A DNA stretch of 64,000 nt from Candidatus Pacearchaeota archaeon (GTDB lineage Archaea; Nanobdellota; Nanobdellia; Pacearchaeales; GW2011-AR1): NCBI GenBank assembly GCA_041649295.1, contig JBAZNI010000001.1, positions 394,991 to 458,990 on the forward strand, read 5' to 3'. Position 1 is the first letter of the stretch, and every line of letters starts with the position of its first letter. The translations under genes were made by a program, and so were the position numbers. The notes under the pieces are model-generated. The model had not been told where the DNA came from. It searched no databases and saw nothing but the letters and a program-made list of their open reading frames with translations. Shown piece after piece: positions 20,620 through 30,905 of this stretch.

Positions 20620-20880
20620 ATGGCTGAAACAATATCTGCACGAGTTGAACTTGACGATTATACTAATCGGGTTCTTGGGATAATTAAAATAAAATTCGGG
20701 CTTAAAGACAAATCAGAAGCTTTAAACAAATTTATTGAACTTTATGGAGATGAGGTAATTGAAAAAGATGCGACAGAAGAATATGCAAAAAAAGTTATTC
20801 TGACAGTAAAAAAGCACATGGAAAAATACAATTCTCGAAAAATGAGTATAGAAGAACTTGATGAATTATGCGAGGTTTAA
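20620..20880 (+). CDS. putative antitoxin (86 aa)
   Basis: Small gene whose stop abuts the start of the RelE-like gene (taaATG). Confidence 0.5.
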   Translation: MAETISARVELDDYTNRVLGIIKIKFGLKDKSEALNKFIELYGDEVIEKDATEEYAKKVILTVKKHMEKYNSRKMSIEELDELCEV

Positions 20881-21177
20881 ATGTTTAATTTTGATTTGAC
20901 AGATGAATTAAGAGTTATAATCAAAAAACTTGCAAGAAAAGATAAAAAAAGAGTAGAGATAATAAATAAAAAAATAAAAGAGATTATAAACTGTGATTAT
21001 ACTTCTATCCAGCATTATAAAAACCTAAGGCATGATTTAAAAGATTTCAAAAGCGTCCATATAGATACAAGTTTTGTTTTAATATTTAAAGTAAATTTAT
21101 CTTCTAATTCTGTCCTATTTGTTGACTTTGACCATCATGATAAGATATACAGCAAAAGATGTATTAATTACATATAA
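20881..21177 (+). CDS. RelE/ParE-superfamily toxin-like protein
   Basis: 98 aa. The layout ...KKLARKDKKRVEIINKKIKEI...LRHDLKDFKSVHID..FVLIFKV....VLFVDFDHHDKIY is typical of RelE-like mRNA interferases. Confidence 0.55.
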   Translation: MFNFDLTDELRVIIKKLARKDKKRVEIINKKIKEIINCDYTSIQHYKNLRHDLKDFKSVHIDTSFVLIFKVNLSSNSVLFVDFDHHDKIYSKRCINYI

Positions 21178-21474: not shown

Positions 21475-22293
21475 ATGATTAGAAACAAATTCAGGATTAA
21501 AACATGGCAGATACCTAAGAATACAGATATGACTCCTTATTGGAGAGTTATTGAAAAAATTATAAAGGAATCTGATATTATTATCGAAGTTCTTGATGCA
21601 AGAATGCCTGAGCTTTCACAAAATGAGCAAGTTGAAGAACTTGCAAAGAAATTTAAAAAAGAGCTTATTTTTGGCTTAAATAAATCTGATTTAGTTCCTG
21701 AAAAACAGCTTAGAAATAAATTAAGGAAATTAAAGAAATCGGGAAATGCATTTATCTTGTCTTCATCTGCAAAATTTGGAATCAGCAAGTTAAGAGATTA
21801 TATTTTTAATTTGGCGCATGGCAAAGAGGATTTTAAAATAGGTATTTTAGGGTATCCAAATACTGGCAAGTCATCTTTGATAAATGCTTTACTAAGAAGG
21901 CATAAAGTTAAGGTAACTTCACGGGCAGGAACAACTCACGGACAGCAATGGGCACGACTTAAAGAAAATATATTAATTATAGACAGTCCTGGGGTAATTC
22001 CATTAGGAAATGATGATGAAGTAAAATATGCTCTTATTGGCTCTAGAAATGTTGAGAGAATTCACAATTTAGAAGCAGTTGCAGAAGCAATAGTAAATTT
22101 ATTTGAAGAAAAAAACAACTTTAAAAAATTTTATAACATTTCTAATTCAGAAGATGATTTTGAATCTCTTATAAATGCAATAGCACTTGAAAAAAAATTC
22201 CTTAAAAAAGGCGGAATACCAGACGAAACGCGTGTTTGGGAGCTTATTGTAAGAGATTGGCAGTCAGGAAAGTTAAACTTAAAAGTGAATTAA
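21475..22293 (+). CDS. circularly permuted ribosome-biogenesis GTPase (YlqF/RbgA/Nug-like)
   Basis: G4 LNKSDL precedes G1 GYPNTGKSSLINAL and G3 DSPG. Confidence 0.75.
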   Translation: MIRNKFRIKTWQIPKNTDMTPYWRVIEKIIKESDIIIEVLDARMPELSQNEQVEELAKKFKKELIFGLNKSDLVPEKQLRNKLRKLKKSGNAFILSSSAKFGISKLRDYIFNLAHGKEDFKIGILGYPNTGKSSLINALLRRHKVKVTSRAGTTHGQQWARLKENILIIDSPGVIPLGNDDEVKYALIGSRNVERIHNLEAVAEAIVNLFEEKNNFKKFYNISNSEDDFESLINAIALEKKFLKKGGIPDETRVWELIVRDWQSGKLNLKVN

Positions 22294-22333: not shown

Positions 22334-22918
22334 CTAAAAATTCTTTTGTGCATTAAATGGCTTATTCATTTTTGTTATCATAAATCTTGGGCTTCCAAAA
22401 CCAGAATCAACAGAGTTTATCATTAAATTATCGACAACTGCTTTGAAAAATCCTCCTATTCTTGGAATTCTTGACTGCTGTGAGAATAAATTAATTATAT
22501 CATTTATTTCTTCCTTATTAAGCATAATTTTTGTATGAATAATTGAATTCATCTTTCTTGCACTTACTATTTTCCCAGGCCCGGGGCAGTCAACACTTGC
22601 AACTGATAAATCATCAATTAATGTCTGAATTTTTCCCAAATCAAGATGCCTTATCTCCTGTTTTAAAACTCTTTGTGGTTGTTTTATAAATATTTTGGGA
22701 TTTGTCCTTGTTCTCTGAACAAAAAACCTGCCTGATTGCGGTTCATAGACAGCGGGATATGAAGGTATTAACCTAACTGATTCTTCTGCCTGATTTTCTT
22801 TTGTTAAAATTGGCTCAGTTCTTTCTATTATTTCAAGTTCATCCCTTGGGATAAAATTAAAGAGAACTGCTTTTGTAAATTCCCTTAAAAAGTGCAAAGA
22901 ATATATTTGCTCTGCCAT
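22334..22918 (-). CDS. N-terminal domain of a type II/IV secretion (VirB11/FlaI/PilB-like) ATPase, without the ATPase domain
   Basis: IQTLIDDLSVASVDCPGPGKIVSARK....INDIINLFSQQSRIP....FKAVVDNLMINSV....GSPRFMITK follows the T2SSE pre-Walker-A pattern (..D..V.dI..nGp.kv.v......f..ee....i..ia.......dg.Ri.a....G..f.IRK). It ends there. Confidence 0.5.
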   Translation of the reverse strand: MAEQIYSLHFLREFTKAVLFNFIPRDELEIIERTEPILTKENQAEESVRLIPSYPAVYEPQSGRFFVQRTRTNPKIFIKQPQRVLKQEIRHLDLGKIQTLIDDLSVASVDCPGPGKIVSARKMNSIIHTKIMLNKEEINDIINLFSQQSRIPRIGGFFKAVVDNLMINSVDSGFGSPRFMITKMNKPFNAQKNF

Positions 22919-22925
22919 TTATAAA

Positions 22926-23426
22926 TTAAGATTTGTTTATATTGTCTTGTTTTATTGAAGGGAACATATTTGTTCTTTGAGCAGCTGGCTGGGGCAAATG
23001 CCCTGCCGGATTTGCCGGAGGATATTGTGGTAAGGTGTTTATCTGAGGCTGTTGTAAGGGATGCCCTCTCACTCTTTCTTCCATAAGTGTAAGCCCTTTT
23101 GCAATAATTTTATTTTGCTCAAGAAGCTTATCTAATTTATCAATAAATTCTTTTTCTTCTTTTGTAATGCCTGCACTTCCATGTTTATCAATGAAAGTTT
23201 TTGCAGAAATTTCAAAAAGGTTAATCATCCTTGTAAGATTATCTGAAAGTTCATCAAATTTTTTAGAAAGATTTGTTAAAACTCTCTGCAATGTAACAAA
23301 ATTCTCAACTAAAAGCTTATCCATCTCAATTCTTCTCGCATCAGCAGAATGTATTATATTCTGTGGTTTTTCAGCATGATTAATGCTCCCTTTTTTCTTA
23401 ACCATATAATTCATAAGGAATATCAA
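22926..23426 (-). CDS. hypothetical coiled-coil protein with a P/Q-rich tail (166 aa)
   Basis: ORF. The start codon is uncertain. Confidence 0.45.
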   Translation of the reverse strand: MIFLMNYMVKKKGSINHAEKPQNIIHSADARRIEMDKLLVENFVTLQRVLTNLSKKFDELSDNLTRMINLFEISAKTFIDKHGSAGITKEEKEFIDKLDKLLEQNKIIAKGLTLMEERVRGHPLQQPQINTLPQYPPANPAGHLPQPAAQRTNMFPSIKQDNINKS

Positions 23427-23548
23427 TTTATAAATTTATTGAAAGACATAGATTAGCTATCAAATTTAACCAACAAGGTAAATAAAAAGAAGTTTGTAAA
23501 TGTAGTTATATCAATCTTAACATATTAAAATACAAATAATCTGCTGTT

Positions 23549-25201
23549 TTATCCAAATAAATTCTTTGCCTTATGCTGAAGCTCTTTTGCAAGCTCTGCT
23601 TTTTTCCTTGCAAGCTCCTGCTCCTGAATAATCTCATGCTCTTTTAATTTATGTTCAAAATGTTTTCTCATATTTTCCTTAAGCAAATTCTCTCTTTTTT
23701 TAAGTTCATTAAGCATCTCACGATGCATTCTTTCTGCAAGGTCTCTTTTTAATTTTTCTTTTTCATGCCTGAACTTTAGCTCTTCATTTTTTTTGACAAG
23801 CTGAAGTTTTTCTGCCAAGGTTCTTTTTTCAGAAGCAAGATTTAATGCTTTTGCTCTCTGAGATTCAACAATTGCTTTTTCTTTTAACTTTAATCCCTGT
23901 TCTCTTGCCTTATACTTCTCTTCAAGCTCCTTAATGTGATTTTCAAGTCTTGCTCTTTCAATCATGACTCTGTTTGCCAAATTATATGAATATTGTTTCT
24001 TCAAATTTTCTGTCAGCTCACTTGTTTTTTCAGAGATGCTCTTTCTCAAAATTTCCCCGTATTCTCTTTGCAATTTTTGTTTAAATGCCTTTTTACTTTT
24101 TGAAGAAACAACCTCTGTTTTTCTTTTCCACTCCCTTACTTTTTGCCTATACTCTTTATACAATCTTTTCTTCTCAGTTTTTGTATGCTCGCCAAGTTTC
24201 TTATCAAAAGCATTATTAAAATGTTTTTTTAATCTTTCAGACAGATTTTTTATCTCCCTTTTATGAGCCTGAATAAGTAAGTCATGCTCCTGATTTAGTT
24301 TTCTAGCCTCTTCCTGCTTTAATAAGCTCTGTTGGTCTACCAAAGATTTATTCTTCTCTCTTAATTGGTCAATAAGATATTTCTTCTCAATAAGGTGATT
24401 TTTAAGCATTTCATTGAACTTTTCATTTCTTTCAAGCAATTCATGAAAATGTTTTATCTTCTCCTCATTTTCTTTTTCATACCTATCCCTCTCTCTCTTT
24501 TTTTGAGCCTCCATTTCAGAAAGCTTTTTCTTAAATTCTTCCACATTCTTAAATTTCTGGCTGTACTGCTCTCTCAAGGATTTTTCCATCAAATGATACT
24601 TTTCATTAAGCTCTTTTTTCTTAAGAATAAGATCTTTTTTAAGTCTAAACCTAACCTCTTCCTGCTTAAGACGGATTTTATCAGAAATATTTGATTTCAA
24701 TCCGTTTAAAAATGATTGAAATTCACTATCAACAATAATTCCGACTTCTGAATCAAAATTGATTTTTTTATCAAGATGAACATTTACTTTATCTTCAAGA
24801 TTTTTAATTTCTTTTTTTATCTGCATATTCGAATGAGATATTCCTTCAACATTTTCCACAACTTCTTCAACATTTTCCCCTATTTTCTTAAGCGGAGATT
24901 TTCTTTTTATCTCACGCCGTTCCATTATTTCTTTTCTTAGTAAATGCATCTGTTTTTCAAGTTCAGGTATGGCTGTTGTATCTTTTAATCTGGATTTTAT
25001 TATCGCAATTTCTTTCTCCAGCCCTTTTGTAAGCCCCCTATTTTCAAGAGAAAAAATTTCACGCCGTATTTCCTCAAGTTTTTCTACTTTTTTCTGAAAC
25101 CTATAAAAATTTTCTCTTAATCTCTTCTCTTTTTTATCCAGATTATGTGCCTCGCTGTATCTTTTTTTACCAGGATGTTTAGACTTTTTATTTTTCACCA
25201 T
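23549..25201 (-). CDS. K/E-rich coiled-coil protein (550 aa), no signal peptide
   Basis: Uninterrupted 550-codon ORF of charged heptad-like sequence. Confidence 0.6.
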   Translation of the reverse strand: MVKNKKSKHPGKKRYSEAHNLDKKEKRLRENFYRFQKKVEKLEEIRREIFSLENRGLTKGLEKEIAIIKSRLKDTTAIPELEKQMHLLRKEIMERREIKRKSPLKKIGENVEEVVENVEGISHSNMQIKKEIKNLEDKVNVHLDKKINFDSEVGIIVDSEFQSFLNGLKSNISDKIRLKQEEVRFRLKKDLILKKKELNEKYHLMEKSLREQYSQKFKNVEEFKKKLSEMEAQKKRERDRYEKENEEKIKHFHELLERNEKFNEMLKNHLIEKKYLIDQLREKNKSLVDQQSLLKQEEARKLNQEHDLLIQAHKREIKNLSERLKKHFNNAFDKKLGEHTKTEKKRLYKEYRQKVREWKRKTEVVSSKSKKAFKQKLQREYGEILRKSISEKTSELTENLKKQYSYNLANRVMIERARLENHIKELEEKYKAREQGLKLKEKAIVESQRAKALNLASEKRTLAEKLQLVKKNEELKFRHEKEKLKRDLAERMHREMLNELKKRENLLKENMRKHFEHKLKEHEIIQEQELARKKAELAKELQHKAKNLFG

Positions 25202-25233
25202 CTTTTTACAAGATTATTTAGTTATCTTTATTT

Positions 25234-28200
25234 TTATACCTTTCCATTCCTAAAAAAATTGTTATTTTCAAATTTATCAATCTTCTTATGAAGATTTGTT
25301 GTATTATAATACCCTTTTTTATTCCATTCAGCCAGCTTTTTCTTTAAGTCAGCAAGTTCAGCTCTCGATAATTCCCCTCTTCTTATCTTCTTTTTTATTA
25401 TTTTAGCTTCTTTTTTTGCCGTCTTTTTTTCTCTGCGAATTATTCTTCTTTTTGCCTTCTTCATTATTTTAGCTTCTTTTTTTGCTTTCTTAAATTTATT
25501 TTTCCTTGCTCTCTTCATAGACTTTGCCATTTTTCTTTCTTCTCTGTTGCGCTTCCACTTGCTAATTTTCTCTTCCAGCAATGTATCAAGATTATACTTA
25601 AGTGAGGCTGTTGCATAATGCCCTTTCCATTTCTTTAGTTTTGCCTTTAAATCTGCTAAGATTGGAGGAACTCTTTCAGCACGCACCTTTTGCCTTGCAA
25701 TTCTTATTTCTTTCTTTTTTATTTTTCTTTCTCTTCTTATTCTTTTTCTTCTTGCAATAGCGTTTTTAATTCTTATCTTAATCTCAATTCTTGGAAGTTT
25801 CAATCTTAACTTTCTTGCTCTTGGAATAGACACTTTTTGAGTTCTGATTTTTCTTAACCTTCTTAAAACTATTAATATGCTGCTTTTTACCTTCATTAAA
25901 CTCTTCCATAAACTGTTTCTTTCTCTTGCTTCTTTCCTTGTTGTTAATATTAGAGTTACAGTCAGCAACAACACTATAACCCACAAGGTTATCTTTACAT
26001 AAATAAACCAGTCAAAGAACTCCCCTCTTTCAGCACAAAGAGGGCATCCAGAACCTCCGCAATCAACAGCTTCTTCATCATAATTTTTAATTCCATCATA
26101 ACAGTAATCACAATACCCTTCAAATTCTGATGCAATAAACCCAATATTTAGTTTTTTAACATTCATTTCAGAATATTCTTTTATTCTGCTAACTAATTTA
26201 TTTGTGGGAATTTCATAAATTTCAACATAAGACTCAAAACACCATACTGCTCTTCTTATATCAACAGGCACACTTAAACTGCAATTCTCATATTCTATTT
26301 TAATACCCTCGCAGCCAGTAGAATCTTTGCACACTCTTTCTTTTATCCCGGTTTTTACAACTCTTCCATGCACAATTGAAGTAAGATTGTAATCAATATG
26401 GCATCCTTCCCATTCCATACATTCATATTCTGGAATACACAAACATTTTCTTCTTATAGGGGGCTGGTTAATTCTTGTCCCGCATTTATTCAAATCCACG
26501 CAATACCTCACATCTTGATACCCATCTTCTCCACAAGTGTAATATTCGCAAACCCAGTCTTCTTTGCAATCTAATCTCGCAGTATTATTTACTATTATCT
26601 GCCATGCCACATCCTGATTTTGCACTCCTGCAGTTATCTTTGCTTCAACATAAGAGTTTTTTGATAATAATTTTGAATAACTGCTGCTTAAAGAACCAAC
26701 TTGTGAATCTCCTTTCTGGAAAATTGAATCAAGATACCATTTTGTTTCAAGAATATTCAATCCTCCATTTTTTATATCAACACTAAAATCCAGATTTGTA
26801 TTATTAGCAACTACTATAAACAAATTTTCCGGGGTATAATTAATTACTAATCCTAAAATACATTCCTGAACTTCTAAGGGTTTTTCAGTTAAGTATCCAC
26901 AGCTATTCAAATCAATGCAGCTCCTTGTTTGCACCCATCCTCCTGCAGGACTTAATAAACCAGCTGGAATATAAGATTCATTGAAAAAACAATCACCCCA
27001 CCCTGTACATTGCCAGTTTGCAATACATGTACACTCTCTAAATTCTGTTTCAGAACTTCCACAACCATCTGATCTTGTTCTTATCTCCCTTCCATCAATA
27101 CAGGTGCCCCAATTACCCCACTCTCCCCAAACAGGGGTACAATCATCTCCATCATCTCCTCCCCCTGACTCTCCACATGTTTGGGTTTCTACTTCTGTAC
27201 AGCTGCTGGAATCTGTTCTGCTTCTTGTCTGACTACCTCCAGAACAAGTGCTCCAATCACTCCACGAACCAAAATCTCCTTTGCAAATATCCTCATCTCC
27301 ATGAACTGTTGTTGCAAGGTATGTTGTATAGTTATTATCGCTTGCCAGAACTACCCACTTTATTAATGCCCCAAGCGTGTAATTTGTAGTTGCATTGGCT
27401 GAAAAATGCCCCAAAGCAGTTTTTATAATACTGCCGGTATAATATCTTGGACTTTCAGGATATACAGCTCCGGCAGAAGTTGTTGCATTTGCACTCATAT
27501 TTTGGGGGTCGTAATAAAAAGTTCCAGATAAATTCGCTTTTAATAAAGTTATTTCAAGAATTGAAACATCTCCATCATAATATTTTCCAATTGTTCTAAG
27601 ATTTGTCATTGTTCTGCCAATTGTATAAGTTATCAAAGAAAAATTAACAAGAGAATAATTAATATTTATAGTATCTGCTGTTGAAATAGAATAATTAACA
27701 AATATCTCCTTATTGCTGATACTCAATGAGGATTTAGTATAATTCATTATGCAATCACCAGATGAATTTGTAGAAGAATTTCCAATTAAAATCCGGTTAT
27801 TATAAAAATAGCACATCGCCCCTGAAAATCCAGTTGTTGTTCCTGACTGATATACTTTAGCAGTCAAATTTATTGCATCTGGAATTAATCCCTTATCATC
27901 TTCTCCAGAAACAGCATCGTTGCCTCTTATTATTTCTGAATTATTTATAGGATAAGTCAAATTAATATCTAAAATTAAATCCTCTCCTAAAATTCCAAAC
28001 CTTCCTGTAAACGTTGCTGAAACATATTGAGAAACTGCCTTTAATCCTCCGACCAGTCTCTGCGTCAAGGTAGTTGAAGTTGCATTTGTAACTGCAAACG
28101 AATCCTCTTTTGAATCTAGAGTATAACTCGTAGAAACTCCCTGTAAAGAAGAAACGATATTCATTAAAAATATTAGGGAGATAATAATAGCTATTGCAAT

Positions 28201-28239
28201 CCACAAATTCTTTTTAATATTGGTATGAATTTTACTCAT
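25234..28239 (-). CDS. large Cys-rich surface protein: N-terminal anchor, ectodomain with TSP1-like repeats, C-terminal TM and ~235-aa basic cytoplasmic tail
   Basis: N-terminal hydrophobic WIAIAIIISLIFLMNIV and many N-x-S/T sites. GSWSDWSTCSGGSQTRSRT and WGEWGNWGTCIDGREIRTRS occur at residues ~318-405. Further spaced-Cys modules and a membrane-proximal DCGGSGCPLC are present. The TM spans residues ~744-766 and is followed by a K/R-rich tail. Confidence 0.75.
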   Translation of the reverse strand: MSKIHTNIKKNLWIAIAIIISLIFLMNIVSSLQGVSTSYTLDSKEDSFAVTNATSTTLTQRLVGGLKAVSQYVSATFTGRFGILGEDLILDINLTYPINNSEIIRGNDAVSGEDDKGLIPDAINLTAKVYQSGTTTGFSGAMCYFYNNRILIGNSSTNSSGDCIMNYTKSSLSISNKEIFVNYSISTADTININYSLVNFSLITYTIGRTMTNLRTIGKYYDGDVSILEITLLKANLSGTFYYDPQNMSANATTSAGAVYPESPRYYTGSIIKTALGHFSANATTNYTLGALIKWVVLASDNNYTTYLATTVHGDEDICKGDFGSWSDWSTCSGGSQTRSRTDSSSCTEVETQTCGESGGGDDGDDCTPVWGEWGNWGTCIDGREIRTRSDGCGSSETEFRECTCIANWQCTGWGDCFFNESYIPAGLLSPAGGWVQTRSCIDLNSCGYLTEKPLEVQECILGLVINYTPENLFIVVANNTNLDFSVDIKNGGLNILETKWYLDSIFQKGDSQVGSLSSSYSKLLSKNSYVEAKITAGVQNQDVAWQIIVNNTARLDCKEDWVCEYYTCGEDGYQDVRYCVDLNKCGTRINQPPIRRKCLCIPEYECMEWEGCHIDYNLTSIVHGRVVKTGIKERVCKDSTGCEGIKIEYENCSLSVPVDIRRAVWCFESYVEIYEIPTNKLVSRIKEYSEMNVKKLNIGFIASEFEGYCDYCYDGIKNYDEEAVDCGGSGCPLCAERGEFFDWFIYVKITLWVIVLLLTVTLILTTRKEARERNSLWKSLMKVKSSILIVLRRLRKIRTQKVSIPRARKLRLKLPRIEIKIRIKNAIARRKRIRRERKIKKKEIRIARQKVRAERVPPILADLKAKLKKWKGHYATASLKYNLDTLLEEKISKWKRNREERKMAKSMKRARKNKFKKAKKEAKIMKKAKRRIIRREKKTAKKEAKIIKKKIRRGELSRAELADLKKKLAEWNKKGYYNTTNLHKKIDKFENNNFFRNGKV

Positions 28240-28423
28240 TTGATTTTTTTATTATAATTTCCTCTTTTTCAACATCAAGCATAATTTCAACTCCATCACT
28301 GGTTTTAAGATTAAGATTATCGAGCAAAGAACTTGGAATTGCAACTCTGTTTAATTTCTGGATTCTCGAACTGCCAAATTTAATTCTTTTTTTCATTAAA
28401 TTATAAATACTATTTTTATACAT
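28232..28423 (-). CDS. AbrB/SpoVT/MazE-type DNA-binding domain protein (63 aa)
   Basis: RVAIPSSLLDNLNLKTSDGVEIMLD swapped-hairpin-like pattern. Overlaps the start of the 1001-aa gene by 8 nt. Confidence 0.5.
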   Translation of the reverse strand: MYKNSIYNLMKKRIKFGSSRIQKLNRVAIPSSLLDNLNLKTSDGVEIMLDVEKEEIIIKKSNE

Positions 28424-28457
28424 TAATGATACTAAATTTAGTATTTAAACATTTCTA

Positions 28458-29945
28458 TTACAAAGTGTACTCGTTCAAGAAGTCGTCGGCTTGTTCACTG
28501 ACTGTTTTATCTTCAGACAGTTGTTTAGCTAGAATTTTAAGCCATTTAGCTCTGTCTAAGTCAATTAAATTTTTTAATTCGTCAATATCCCCATAATAAT
28601 ATGACTTTTCTATCCAATAATCTCCTATTTCAAATCTAATCACCAACCTATCATTAACAACTTCTGACTTTGTTATTTTAACACTATTATCTCCGGTTTT
28701 TGCCTTTAAAACAGACAATTCTTCATCAGTTAATGCATAATCAGATATATTCTCTGTTAGTATAGTTGCATTTGCAACAGTTTCATTTATAGAAGTCATA
28801 TTTTTTAATGTTTCATTTTCTGTCTGAACTTCTTCACTTTGAACTGGAGATTCAACACTCAAAATCGTTGAAACAGATAAAATCTCGCTGTCTTCATACA
28901 TTAATGCAGTAATCATTTCCCCTTCAACAGCTTTTATATTCAAAGAAGAAATATCAATAACTAATTCATATTCAAAACTATCTCCCAGGTAATCTTCTCC
29001 AAATCCTTTTTCAGTTTCAGAATAATCTGTTGTAATGGTTATTAAATTGCCTTCAGTTATTAATTTGATTTCTTTATCTGATGAGATTATTTCTGCTGTC
29101 TCTCCCTCGCCAAGCTCATAAGTATATGAATTTCCCTTAGAGGTTTTCCCACTAACAATGTTTTCTAATTCTGCAACTACCTGTCCTGTTAAAATAGAAC
29201 CTCCAGATTCTGCTGTCTCACTTGTTTCACTTTCTCCTGCAGTTTCTTCAGTTGTACTAGTTTCTTCGCTCTCACCTGTTGTTTCCTCTGCTGTCTCGCT
29301 TGTTTCACTTTCTTCAGTTGTACTAGTTTCTTCACTCTCGCTTGTTGTTTCCTCTGCTGTATCACTTGTTTCACTTTCTCCTGCAGTTTCTTCAGTTGTA
29401 CTAGTTTCTTCACTCTCACCTGTTGTTTCCTCTGCTGTCTCACTTGTTTCACTTTCCCCAGTTGTACTAGTTTCTTCACTCTCGCTTGTTGTTTCCTCTG
29501 CTGTATCACTTGTTTCACTTTCTCCCTTTTTACCCCCGCTCGATTCTTTTTTAGATATTTTTAATTTAAAATTTACTTCAGGATTAGCCTCTTTTTCCCC
29601 AGCTACTCCATATCCACTTCCACTTCCAGATAGTCCTGCGTCTTCAATATAATAATCTCCCTGCACTGCTTCTTCTGAAACCAAATCTGATAAAATAAAA
29701 TCATATGTGCTATTTGAAACAGAAATAGAGACAATTGAATCTGCAGGGATTAATTCTCCTGCTTTTGATTCTAACCTAAAACTTCCCTGAAGAGATTCAT
29801 TCTCTGCATAATTTGTTTCTACATTAAGAAGAACTTTTCCAGTTATTCCTTTCTGAGAATAAGTTATAAAATAAATAAATAAAACTGCTGTAAGTATTAA
29901 TAATAAAGTGCTTAAGATAATTTTATGTTTTTGTTTTTGTTTCAT
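28458..29945 (-). CDS. secreted/anchored protein with an acidic S/T/E tandem-repeat region (495 aa)
   Basis: N-terminal TM ILSTLLLILTAVLFIYFI. Central repeats ETS[ED]TAEETT[GS]ESEETSTTEE. Confidence 0.7.
   Translation of the reverse strand: MKQKQKHKIILSTLLLILTAVLFIYFITYSQKGITGKVLLNVETNYAENESLQGSFRLESKAGELIPADSIVSISVSNSTYDFILSDLVSEEAVQGDYYIEDAGLSGSGSGYGVAGEKEANPEVNFKLKISKKESSGGKKGESETSDTAEETTSESEETSTTGESETSETAEETTGESEETSTTEETAGESETSDTAEETTSESEETSTTEESETSETAEETTGESEETSTTEETAGESETSETAESGGSILTGQVVAELENIVSGKTSKGNSYTYELGEGETAEIISSDKEIKLITEGNLITITTDYSETEKGFGEDYLGDSFEYELVIDISSLNIKAVEGEMITALMYEDSEILSVSTILSVESPVQSEEVQTENETLKNMTSINETVANATILTENISDYALTDEELSVLKAKTGDNSVKITKSEVVNDRLVIRFEIGDYWIEKSYYYGDIDELKNLIDLDRAKWLKILAKQLSEDKTVSEQADDFLNEYTL
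29200..29530. repeat. in-frame coding tandem repeat (unit ~60-75 nt, several copies)
   Basis: Repeated tgtttcactttc[tc]c..gttgtactagtttcttc[ag]ctctc.c.tgttgtttcctctgctgt[ac]tc blocks. Confidence 0.8.
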
Positions 29946-29953
29946 TTTAATTC

Positions 29954-30658
29954 TTAACTGCTTGTAGTTTCAACTATAGTAGTTGCATCTCCAAAAACCA
30001 TTCCTCCTGTTTTTTCAAGATAAACAGAAATTACATCCCCTGCATTAAATGTTACTATATTTTCAGATTGCAAGTCATAATCAATATTTGCAGAATCTGA
30101 AGAATAGAAAGTATTTGAAAATCCTGTGTCTTCGCCGTTTTTATAAACCTTAATTTCAATTTTCCCGTCTCCAGAAATAATATCCAAACTAGTGGATATT
30201 CCTGTTATGCTTCCCTTAGAAAGCATCACATATCCCTTATTCTCTCCAGAAGTCACCCCTGCACTTGTTTTAAGATACAAAGATTCTTCAGATGTTCCAG
30301 AATATCCAAAATACAATTGCTGGATATTCTTAACTATAGTTTGTTTTTTCTTAAATTCATCTGCTGAATAAGTTATTACAAACAAACTTTTCTCTTCCTG
30401 TTCATCAGTATAATTAACTTGGTAAATCCCAACCTGATTGTTCTCAATCTCTTTTATTTCAACATCATCTGGAAGATTGCTTTGGTCTATTTGATTTATT
30501 GTTTTAACTTTATCTTTTGCTATGCCCCCTTTTTCCATAAACGAACCAATATAATTTTTAACCTCGCTACTTACAGAATTATCACTTAAAACTTCTGCAA
30601 AAGCTCCTGCTGATAAAATCAAAATTAAACAAGCAACAATTACCCCTCTTTTTTTCAT
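29954..30658 (-). CDS. secreted protein (234 aa)
   Basis: Signal peptide MKKRGVIVACLILILSAGAFA, then a beta-rich sequence. Confidence 0.6.
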   Translation of the reverse strand: MKKRGVIVACLILILSAGAFAEVLSDNSVSSEVKNYIGSFMEKGGIAKDKVKTINQIDQSNLPDDVEIKEIENNQVGIYQVNYTDEQEEKSLFVITYSADEFKKKQTIVKNIQQLYFGYSGTSEESLYLKTSAGVTSGENKGYVMLSKGSITGISTSLDIISGDGKIEIKVYKNGEDTGFSNTFYSSDSANIDYDLQSENIVTFNAGDVISVYLEKTGGMVFGDATTIVETTSS

Positions 30659-30659
30659 T

Positions 30660-30905
30660 TTAAATTTGTGTCTGATTTTCAGGCTGATAGTTTATTAAAA
30701 CAATTGTCCTTTCACCATCAGTCAATTGAACATAACCATTTGTTTCTGCCTGATTTATTATTGTTTTAACAACAACTTCCTGGGCAGTTAATTGTTTGTT
30801 TATTATATATCCCTGCAAACTTGGACCTATTAATGTCACATAAACAAGAGCAACTGCAAGAATTATAATAATGCCAATTGCAATCAAAAGTTTTTTATCT
30901 TTCAT
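30660..30905 (-). CDS. small N-terminally anchored protein (81 aa)
   Basis: MKDKKLLIAIGIIIILAVALVYV TM. First gene of the minus-strand cluster. Confidence 0.5.
   Translation of the reverse strand: MKDKKLLIAIGIIIILAVALVYVTLIGPSLQGYIINKQLTAQEVVVKTIINQAETNGYVQLTDGERTIVLINYQPENQTQI

Follow-up and report, generated by a model that had tools for sequence, protein, structure and literature searches.

In Mycoplasma pneumoniae, the attachment organelle combines the membrane adhesins P1 and P30 with a coiled-coil scaffold of HMW1 and HMW2. Among archaea, halobacterial loci associated with type IV pili (T4P) place a protein resembling those of surface layers (S-layers) beside an intracellular coiled-coil protein, arCOG07564, that is presumed to be regulatory (PMC4858521), and the type IV filament (T4F) loci of DPANN archaea known as 'system 1' consist of an ATPase gene and two platform genes (PMC13705601). 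Here we describe a locus of eight minus-strand genes at positions 22334-30905 of a 64,000-nt stretch of DNA from a Candidatus Pacearchaeota archaeon (hereafter the window, whose coordinates are used for all features), in which a surface protein is encoded beside a long coiled-coil protein. A first-pass annotation of the same DNA had read all eight genes as a single candidate host-attachment apparatus. On the comparative evidence presented below, we consider it probable that the locus is not one apparatus and instead comprises three conserved units lying side by side, the second of which links the cytoplasmic tail of the surface protein to the coiled-coil protein.

We refer to the genes by the length in amino acids of their products which, in order along the minus strand, are g81, g234, g495, g63, g1001, g550, g166 and g194. 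By analogy, g1001 and g550 resemble the M. pneumoniae organelle in that a membrane-spanning surface protein with a cytoplasmic tail appears to be encoded together with a long coiled-coil protein in a small-genome, host-dependent cell. They differ from it in showing no sequence or fold homology, in belonging to an archaeon and in being two basic partners. With the halobacterial arCOG07564 loci they share, in a likeness by description, an archaeal surface protein encoded beside a cytoplasmic coiled coil; the halobacterial genes are part of a T4P operon that also encodes an ATPase and TadC, whereas the present locus has no T4F core and its coupling would run through a basic tail. g550 has the long heptad repeats that characterise scaffold proteins of the crescentin, FilP/Scy and HMW2 type, and its self-assembly is a prediction. 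The tail-to-coiled-coil surface link is best filed as a variant of known coupling between surface proteins and cytoplasmic scaffolds.

The last gene of the locus has a different set of relatives. Its product, g194, resembles the N-domains of FlaI/ArlI (4II7), Archaeoglobus fulgidus GspE (2OAP), CpaF/TadA (9E24) and VirB11 (2GZA) in their alpha-beta3-alpha-beta3 fold, and is unlike FlaI, GspE, CpaF and VirB11 in having no Walker A/B domain, in being a free-standing protein of roughly 150-315 aa, in carrying N-terminal helices of its own and in following a small helical protein. No stand-alone N-domain protein is described in the surveys of archaeal T4P and T4F (PMC4858521, PMC13705601), and our literature search turned up no account of this cluster, or of a secretion-ATPase N-domain that stands alone as a protein. 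The genome does possess, at a distance, a T2SSE locus that resembles DPANN 'system 1' in consisting of an ATPase and two platform genes (PMC13705601).

The host genome measures 812 kb over five contigs, its nearest database relatives are annotated as Candidatus Pacearchaeota or Nanoarchaeota, and the G+C content of the window is approximately 31%. Contigs of relatives point to groundwater as the habitat. All eight open reading frames (ORFs) are present exactly where the first-pass annotation had placed them, and the tight spacing that it described is found everywhere except at the g550/g166 junction, where the genes are 143 nt apart and the intervening DNA contains an oligo-T tract and a TATA-like box. 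Scans of the eight proteins against Pfam and NCBIfam gave no match at or above any cut-off. We divide the locus into a surface module (g81-g234-g495), the g63-g1001-g550 genes and the g166-g194 pair because comparative genomics assigns these units a different phyletic spread, orientation and promoter.

The evidence for a link across the membrane comes from the second unit. As had been annotated, g1001 encodes a Cys-rich, type-I-like membrane protein: an N-terminal hydrophobic segment and a long ectodomain are followed by a single transmembrane (TM) helix at approximately residues 746-764 (25948..26004; hydropathy scan, with the AlphaFold2 (AF2) model showing a long helix that starts at residue 744) and then by a 235-aa tail with 38% K+R (25237..25947; composition and AF2 helices), which is predicted to be helical and to lie in the cytoplasm. 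Downstream, g550 (23549..25201) encodes a basic K/E/R-rich protein whose assignment as a cytoplasmic coiled coil is consistent with its lack of TM segments and Cys residues and with its heptad periodicity, a dominant period of 3.3-3.75 residues occurring in 42% of sequence windows compared with 13 +/- 8% in shuffles. No Pfam domain, and hence no enzymatic domain, was detected in g550. Its relatives range from 534 to 1131 aa, with conserved N- and C-terminal parts and a variable middle.

The g1001 tail terminates in a distinctive motif (residues 938-997; 25249..25428), defined by alignment of 13 orthologs and a hidden Markov model (HMM) search, that reads ...ELADLKKKLAEWNKKGYYNTTNLHKKIDKFE... 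and is predicted to fold as a helix-turn-helix hairpin; a degenerate second copy is found at residues 831-887. The consensus occupies approximately 45 residues at the extreme C-terminus (SDLRKKLxEWKxKGYYDTTxLQKKLDEYEG) with the core W-x3-GYY(D/N)TT. Within the genome, the HMM search found the motif in g1001 alone, and it is also present in tailed proteins encoded beside g550 in other genera.

The presence of this tail follows that of g550. All 13 g1001 orthologs that co-occur with g550 possess a K/R-rich tail of 160-570 aa ending in the motif. Three genomes (G004, G007 and G009) have no g550 anywhere, and their g1001 tails are 0-58 aa long and devoid of the motif. A fourth, G019, which is 72% complete, has no g550 either, and its intact g1001 ORF ends after a 58-aa tail (G019:C5:18587-21568, locus L018). 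The match to g1001 in G019 also runs past 16 stop codons within the tail, and the tail/coiled-coil module may be in the course of decay there. Homologues of g550 were found in nine other genera among 100 sampled. At all six informative loci from other genera, a type-I membrane protein whose tail of 120-250 aa contains 29-40% K+R is encoded upstream of g550, and the two genes are adjacent at five of the six; three of these six tailed proteins have a small, Cys-poor ectodomain unrelated to that of g1001. Because the pairing persists in other genera despite unrelated ectodomains, we regard the predicted TM helix and basic tail (with its hairpin motif), followed by the coiled-coil protein, as the conserved unit.

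The ectodomain of g1001, by comparison, is a mosaic. Its best-conserved part is the N-domain (residues 31-355; 27175..28149), which was delimited by ortholog identity and the model, is 46-56% identical within the genus and has only 24 homologues among 5.8 billion proteins, the source names of which follow their inserts, one of them PA14. Cys-rich and Ig-like modules occupy residues 356-745 (26005..27174), as judged from Cys columns and AF2, and show W-x-x-W/Cys repeats with Cys columns that are invariant in the ortholog alignment. The ectodomain contains all 34 Cys residues of the protein, 28 of them in residues 356-745, and 22 of the 23 N-x-S/T sequons, 16 of them within the N-domain. At approximately residues 318-405, a segment modelled with low confidence, inspection by eye reveals a W-x-x-W / C / R-x-R pattern, and a search of g1001 for TSP_1 returned no Pfam family at E <= 1. 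The AF2 model contains a beta-sandwich at residues 460-600 with a predicted local distance difference test score (pLDDT) of 80-90 and a partly confident one at residues 120-200, and a fold search with the model returned generic Ig, FN3 and macroglobulin chains at TM-scores below 0.11. Orthologs of g1001 vary from 664 to 2101 aa around a common N-domain, Cys-rich modules and membrane-proximal region and exchange inserts, which among 17 orthologs include Hint/PT-HINT (7/17), NosD/beta-helix (4), Big_7 (4) and MopE/DUF4215 (3) domains; no Hint/PT-HINT autoprocessing domain is present in the window copy. One 1203-aa ortholog (L001:13269-16864) is represented in another strain of the same species by ORFs of 765 and 421 aa (L002:13207-16818), a split that may reflect a frameshift or phase variation.

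A mosaic of this kind would suit an adhesin or a variable antigen, and an ordinary envelope protein no less. It is conceivable, if rather doubtful, that g1001 together with g81, g234 and g495 constitutes an ordinary S-layer-like envelope set in which the tail and g550 only anchor the envelope and play no part in host recognition. g1001 is single-copy at a position conserved across the genus, it has the predicted export signal, C-terminal membrane anchor and numerous N-glycosylation sites expected of S-layer-type proteins, and the S-layer protein SbsC is among its generic beta-sandwich fold matches. Set against this, g1001 matches no known S-layer family in Pfam or NCBIfam; the strong variation of its ectodomain in length and in inserts (Hint, beta-helix, Ig, PA14 and MopE) is more reminiscent of adhesins and variable antigens; the family of its N-domain is confined to those few members; and three members of the genus do without both the tail and g550.

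Several observations weigh against a tail-to-coiled-coil link, or against the wider interpretation of the locus. The first-pass annotation had described the tail and the coiled coil as oppositely charged, which is not the case: both are strongly basic, with net charges of +69 and +47, respectively, and a simple electrostatic fit between them is excluded. A shared polyanionic partner, either nucleic acid or lipid, is possible. The independent co-loss events may number just two or three, as G004 and G007 are alike and G019 is incomplete, and at one of the six loci in other genera (L068) the tailed protein and g550 are separated by 7 kb. The AF2 model of g1001 has an overall pLDDT of 59, and is confident only for the beta-sandwich domains and the tail helices. 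Gene order in the family is generally stable, so that adjacency alone is weak evidence. Lastly, a T4F operon stands beside the g166-g194 pair in only one sampled genome, G037, where T2SSE-T2SSF-T2SSF come directly after the pair.

As the tail and g550 are both basic, contact between them is more likely to be made through the specific terminal hairpin, unless both bind a polyanion. In the latter case the two proteins would not bind each other at all, and each would associate with DNA, RNA, ribosomes or acidic lipids, as might suit two highly charged proteins that are both long predicted helices with no hydrophobic segments. The role of the membrane protein would then be to tether nucleic acid or to shape the membrane. 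We think this unlikely. The part of the tail that tracks g550 is a conserved motif that is not polybasic (W-x3-GYYDTT...KKLD.YE), which argues for a specific protein-protein contact, and no nucleic-acid-binding domain was detectable. Of the trans-envelope structure that had been proposed for the locus, the connection between surface protein and coiled coil is thus retained on the strength of the 13/13 co-occurrence, the co-loss and the adjacency, and its electrostatic basis and eight-gene scope are not.

The analysis establishes gene structures, folds, predicted topology, phyletic patterns, co-loss and adjacency; from these we infer physical binding of the tail to g550, formation of a scaffold, regulation by g63 and any role in host contact. 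g63 would be translationally coupled to g1001 and would regulate the operon. After export, g1001 would be retained in the membrane through its single helix and would expose an ectodomain of beta-sandwich and Cys-knot modules with many disulfides and glycosylation sites. Its tail would remain in the cytoplasm, where the terminal W-x3-GYY(D/N)TT hairpin would dock on g550. By oligomerising beneath the membrane, g550 would then fix the surface protein in place, cluster it or determine its position, and the site at which g1001 and g550 cluster could be a contact site with another cell.

The regulatory role suggested for g63 (28232..28423) stems from its resemblance to AbrB-type proteins, which had been noted at the outset along with the overlap of its gene with the next. 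The overlap with g1001 is 8 nt, and a profile built from orthologs of g63 matches SpoVT (2RO5, E 8e-5), Abh (2e-4) and AbrB (4e-4) in the PDB, with matches at E-values up to 5e-4 that cover the whole of the DNA-binding domain of approximately 45 residues (profile positions 13-55 of 57). The single sequence matches TIGR01439 at E 1.6e-4, which falls under the curated cut-offs of TIGR01439 and PF04014. Orthologs were detected in 11 of 16 loci fetched from the genus for comparison. In the genome G162, a 73-aa protein (L073:4521-4742) whose gene overlaps the start of a g1001-like gene, exactly at the g63 position, is not homologous to g63 and has weak winged helix-turn-helix (HTH) matches (HTH_24 and HTH_11), all below cut-off; this looks like a non-orthologous replacement of one small DNA-binding protein by another. 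The profile match to AbrB, SpoVT and Abh, the overlap with g1001 and the winged-HTH-like protein at the same position in G162 all fit a dedicated regulator, and g63 is probably a local transcription regulator of the operon rather than a structural component. Its predicted likeness to the N-terminal swapped-hairpin domain of AbrB, SpoVT and Abh (2RO5, 2FY9 and 1Z0R) extends across the whole domain. Unlike those proteins it is archaeal, 54-63 aa long and encoded by a gene that overlaps a surface-protein gene, with no toxin partner present.

The genes of the first unit conform to their original description. g81 (30660..30905) is the first gene of the surface module and encodes a small protein anchored by an N-terminal TM segment at residues 8-26, as established from the ORF, a TM scan and its orthologs, which are 41-58% identical, collinear within the genus and present also in other genera; a TATA-like TTATATAAA and a GGAGGG lie close by upstream. 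g234 (29954..30658) has an N-terminal hydrophobic segment that, in the alignment of orthologs, forms a conserved Sec-type signal ending AFA/Q, consistent with its annotation as a secreted protein, and its conserved C-terminal half may be beta-rich. Among 151 genomes of the order, 31 contain g234 (29 with strong E-values), and they represent approximately 16 genera of one family. g495 (28458..29945) is anchored by a TM segment at residues 9-27, identified by TM scan, and its composition (22% D+E, 25% S+T) reflects the acidic S/T/E-rich repeats reported earlier, which a repeat scan traces to a 144-nt tandem repeat at 29209-29525 (2.2 copies, 97% matches). The repeats form a stalk flanked by N- and C-terminal domains that are conserved in orthologs within the genus and in other genera. 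From their predicted signals and anchors, we regard g81, g234 and g495 as an exported or membrane-anchored surface set confined to these genera of one Pacearchaeales-type family. Two strains of a related species have an additional gene (423 aa) between the g63 and g495 orthologs (L002:17403-18674 and L003:17562-18833); it has a faint Peptidase_M10 match and is missing from the sister contigs L001 and L004, revealing strain-level variation in the gene content of the surface cluster.

The arrangement of the three units relative to one another is where the window departs most from its relatives. The order g81-g234-g495-g63-g1001-g550 is preserved across the 16 fetched genus loci, with gaps (g63 undetected in five and g550 missing in four). 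The g166-g194 pair is present in the fetched locus of 12 genomes and is on the opposite strand in 11 of them. The usual order in the genus, found also in two metagenomic relatives, is GTPase -> g166 -> g194 -> | <- g550, with the GTPase gene preceding the pair on the same strand at L020, L022-L025, L028, L029 and L033. This gene encodes an MMR_HSR1-type GTPase, according to the Pfam tags on its orthologs, whose sequence reads as the circularly permuted YlqF/RbgA type. In the window it lies at 21475..22293 on the plus strand and converges on g194, marking an inversion, and the pair is flipped in only this genome and one other (G005). The sequence comparison thus indicates that the co-directional eight-gene layout is the result of a local inversion. 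The only inverted repeats found bounding the flipped pair were AT-rich matches of at most 12 nt. The link between GTPase and pair as such was set aside, as it holds within the genus only. The 143-nt spacer between g550 and g166 (23406..23548), read from the sequence, contains the oligo-T tract followed by the TATA-like TTTATAAA (23427-23434), 22-29 nt before the ATG at 23405, and given the usual layout of archaeal promoters it is likely to represent a terminator and the pair's own promoter. A scan for bacterial promoters and terminators gave no enrichment, the method being inapplicable to archaea.

Across the family, g234 and g194 lie 1.4-11.3 kb apart in all 23 genomes in which they share a contig and are convergent in 22 of these. 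Outside the genus, the intervening gap measures 1.4-3.7 kb in 19 of 20 genomes, and the only genes in it are g495, g81 and a variable set for small anchored proteins. Because such a gap lacks room for g1001 and g550, we interpret g63-g1001-g550 as a later insertion between g495 and the pair. Nor does proximity imply cooperation: the metabolic gene PPDK immediately precedes the pair in seven genera, including two without the surface genes, and as this neighbour is equally faithful we gave the adjacency of pair and surface genes little weight as functional evidence. The pair, represented by g194, is present in 136 of 151 genomes compared with the 31 that have g234, and because of this wider spread and the stable gene order we attribute the adjacency to inheritance and not to joint function.

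These data bear on the original proposal that all eight genes form one trans-envelope host-attachment machine, including a secretion-ATPase fragment and a small coiled-coil protein. The eight genes are indeed co-directional here and in G005, the surface module and the pair are neighbours wherever both are on one contig, and g194 does carry the ATPase N-domain fold. However, the near-universal convergence of the pair with the surface genes, its apparent promoter in the window, its class-wide distribution, mostly in genomes lacking the surface genes, and the equal fidelity of PPDK make a single machine quite improbable, and the locus contains no ATPase, platform or pilin gene.

The third unit begins with g166 (22926..23405), a small helical protein that, by alignment of orthologs, belongs to a class-wide DPANN family. 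It had been annotated as a 166-aa coiled-coil and PQ-rich protein; the PQ-rich extension is present in the window copy, but the product is probably 159 aa long, as it is on its database record, with its start at the ATG at 23405. Most g166 orthologs end in RP..LPRF, and the window copy instead has a PQ-rich end (22926-23000) that finishes ...NMFPSIKQDNINKS and has no LPRF. A database of 5.8 billion proteins contains more than 2,100 members of the family, every one hypothetical and lacking a Pfam domain, and a g166 profile found no match in the PDB. Of the 201 genomes (158 genera) in a phylum-level sample, 120 (96 genera) have one g166 gene each, and all of these belong to one class. A g166 homologue lies directly upstream of a g194 homologue on the same strand at 18 of 18 loci from nine families, with a gap of at most 56 nt or an overlap, and all 11 short-frame g194-like matches outside the order lie a few hundred bases downstream of g166 on the same strand.

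For g194 (22334..22918), the fold proposed by the first-pass annotation, that of a VirB11/FlaI/PilB N-domain, is upheld, and the designation of the protein as truncated is not. A profile built from 14 orthologs found FlaI (4II7) as its best PDB match, over the FlaI N-terminal domain (E 0.0095). In the AF2 model, residues 90-185 (nt 22364-22651) have a pLDDT above 90, residues 1-33 form conserved N-terminal helices and the linker is disordered. Foldseek matched the modelled domain to CpaF (6e-6), A. fulgidus GspE (7e-6), FlaI (1e-5) and VirB11, at E-values no higher than 9e-4 and with a probability of 1.0. The matches span 97-111 aligned residues at 18-24% identity, and the root-mean-square deviation from GspE and FlaI is 2.3-2.5 A over approximately 97 residues. 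Searching the PDB with the single g194 sequence gave chance matches to mS29 only, and a search for T2SSE found no Pfam family at E <= 1. The protein ends approximately 10 residues past the N-domain, has no RecA-like ATPase domain and is followed by no ATPase ORF.

This stand-alone form is the rule. In the 136 genomes of the order that possess it (76 of 84 genera), g194 is essentially single-copy, in frames of 130-365 aa with invariant residues. Among all 151 genomes no fusion to an ATPase domain was found, ATPases of 510-550 aa giving only weak secondary matches. The real T2SSE ATPases of the host genome are an intein-containing protein of 996 aa, encoded with two T2SSF genes approximately 250 kb away on contig C1, and a 755-aa protein on contig C2. 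From the points at which their T2SSE matches begin, profile positions 32 and 91, one of the two ATPases retains its N-domain and the other carries an extra 400 aa at the N-terminus. As these ATPases have N-terminal regions of their own and lie far off, and no fused form exists, we ruled out an origin of g194 by gene splitting. Because of its conserved length, the absence of a fused form and the location of the ATPases elsewhere, we consider g194, on its modelled structure, to be an ancient stand-alone paralogue of the secretion-ATPase N-domain. That it is a decaying remnant or split-off half of a pilus or archaellum ATPase gene with no function of its own would account for its homology and fold, and is highly implausible given its conservation across the order, its constant pairing with g166 and the intact N-terminal regions of the genome's ATPases.

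The g166-g194 pair most likely acts with, or regulates, T4F ATPases encoded elsewhere in the genome. Adjacency offers no such connection and was discarded as an argument: outside G037 the pair is separated from T4F genes by 18 kb or more, or does not share a contig with them, and the neighbours of the pair are mostly housekeeping genes (PPDK, RFC and FttA). No T2SSE or T2SSF was found among the eight proteins of the locus, and the signal of g234 is of the Sec type (AxA).

Other genes near the pair or the T4F ATPases deserve mention. At L047, L049, L052, L055 and L058, which represent families f1, f2, f3 and f9, the pair is preceded, on its own strand, by genes for two unannotated proteins (approximately 188 and 228 aa), the former with a sub-threshold HTH_7 match only, and both may belong to the g166-g194 unit. 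In G027 (family f4), six small proteins of 141-271 aa are encoded divergently from the pair (L050:1146-4829). All six have a single hydrophobic segment near the N-terminus, and several contain more than one Cys residue; these could be pilins or surface proteins. The 996-aa T2SSE of the host genome (G000 C1:168341-171331; L065:4341-7331, minus strand) has its intein, which contains a LAGLIDADG homing endonuclease, next to the P-loop region, and its gene is followed by the two T2SSF genes and preceded by ORFs of 148-180 aa that could encode pilins. Elsewhere in the window (20620-21177, plus strand), abutting ORFs of 86 and 98 aa, the second starting one base after the first ends, resemble a small toxin-antitoxin-type pair, the 98-aa product appearing RelE/ParE-like by eye.

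Taken together, the co-inheritance and co-loss of the tail and the coiled coil, and their independence of the ectodomain, predict a specific protein-protein contact. More tentatively, the locus may hold a modular DPANN receptor-scaffold system, in which swappable ectodomains, joined to a shared transmembrane helix and polybasic helical tail, connect through the hairpin to g550, alongside a g166-g194 pair that regulates or adapts T4F motors. If true, this would be a link from adhesion receptor to cytoskeleton in tiny cells, comparable to the Mycoplasma attachment organelle. The origin of the co-directional layout in a local inversion is a caution for methods that rely on gene neighbourhood. The g166-g194 pair is class-wide, has no described function and is built on a free-standing secretion-ATPase N-domain. 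DPANN archaea depend on contact with other cells, and the proteins that build their surfaces are almost entirely unknown; either unit could help to explain how ultra-small archaea arrange their surface proteins or regulate their pilus motors.

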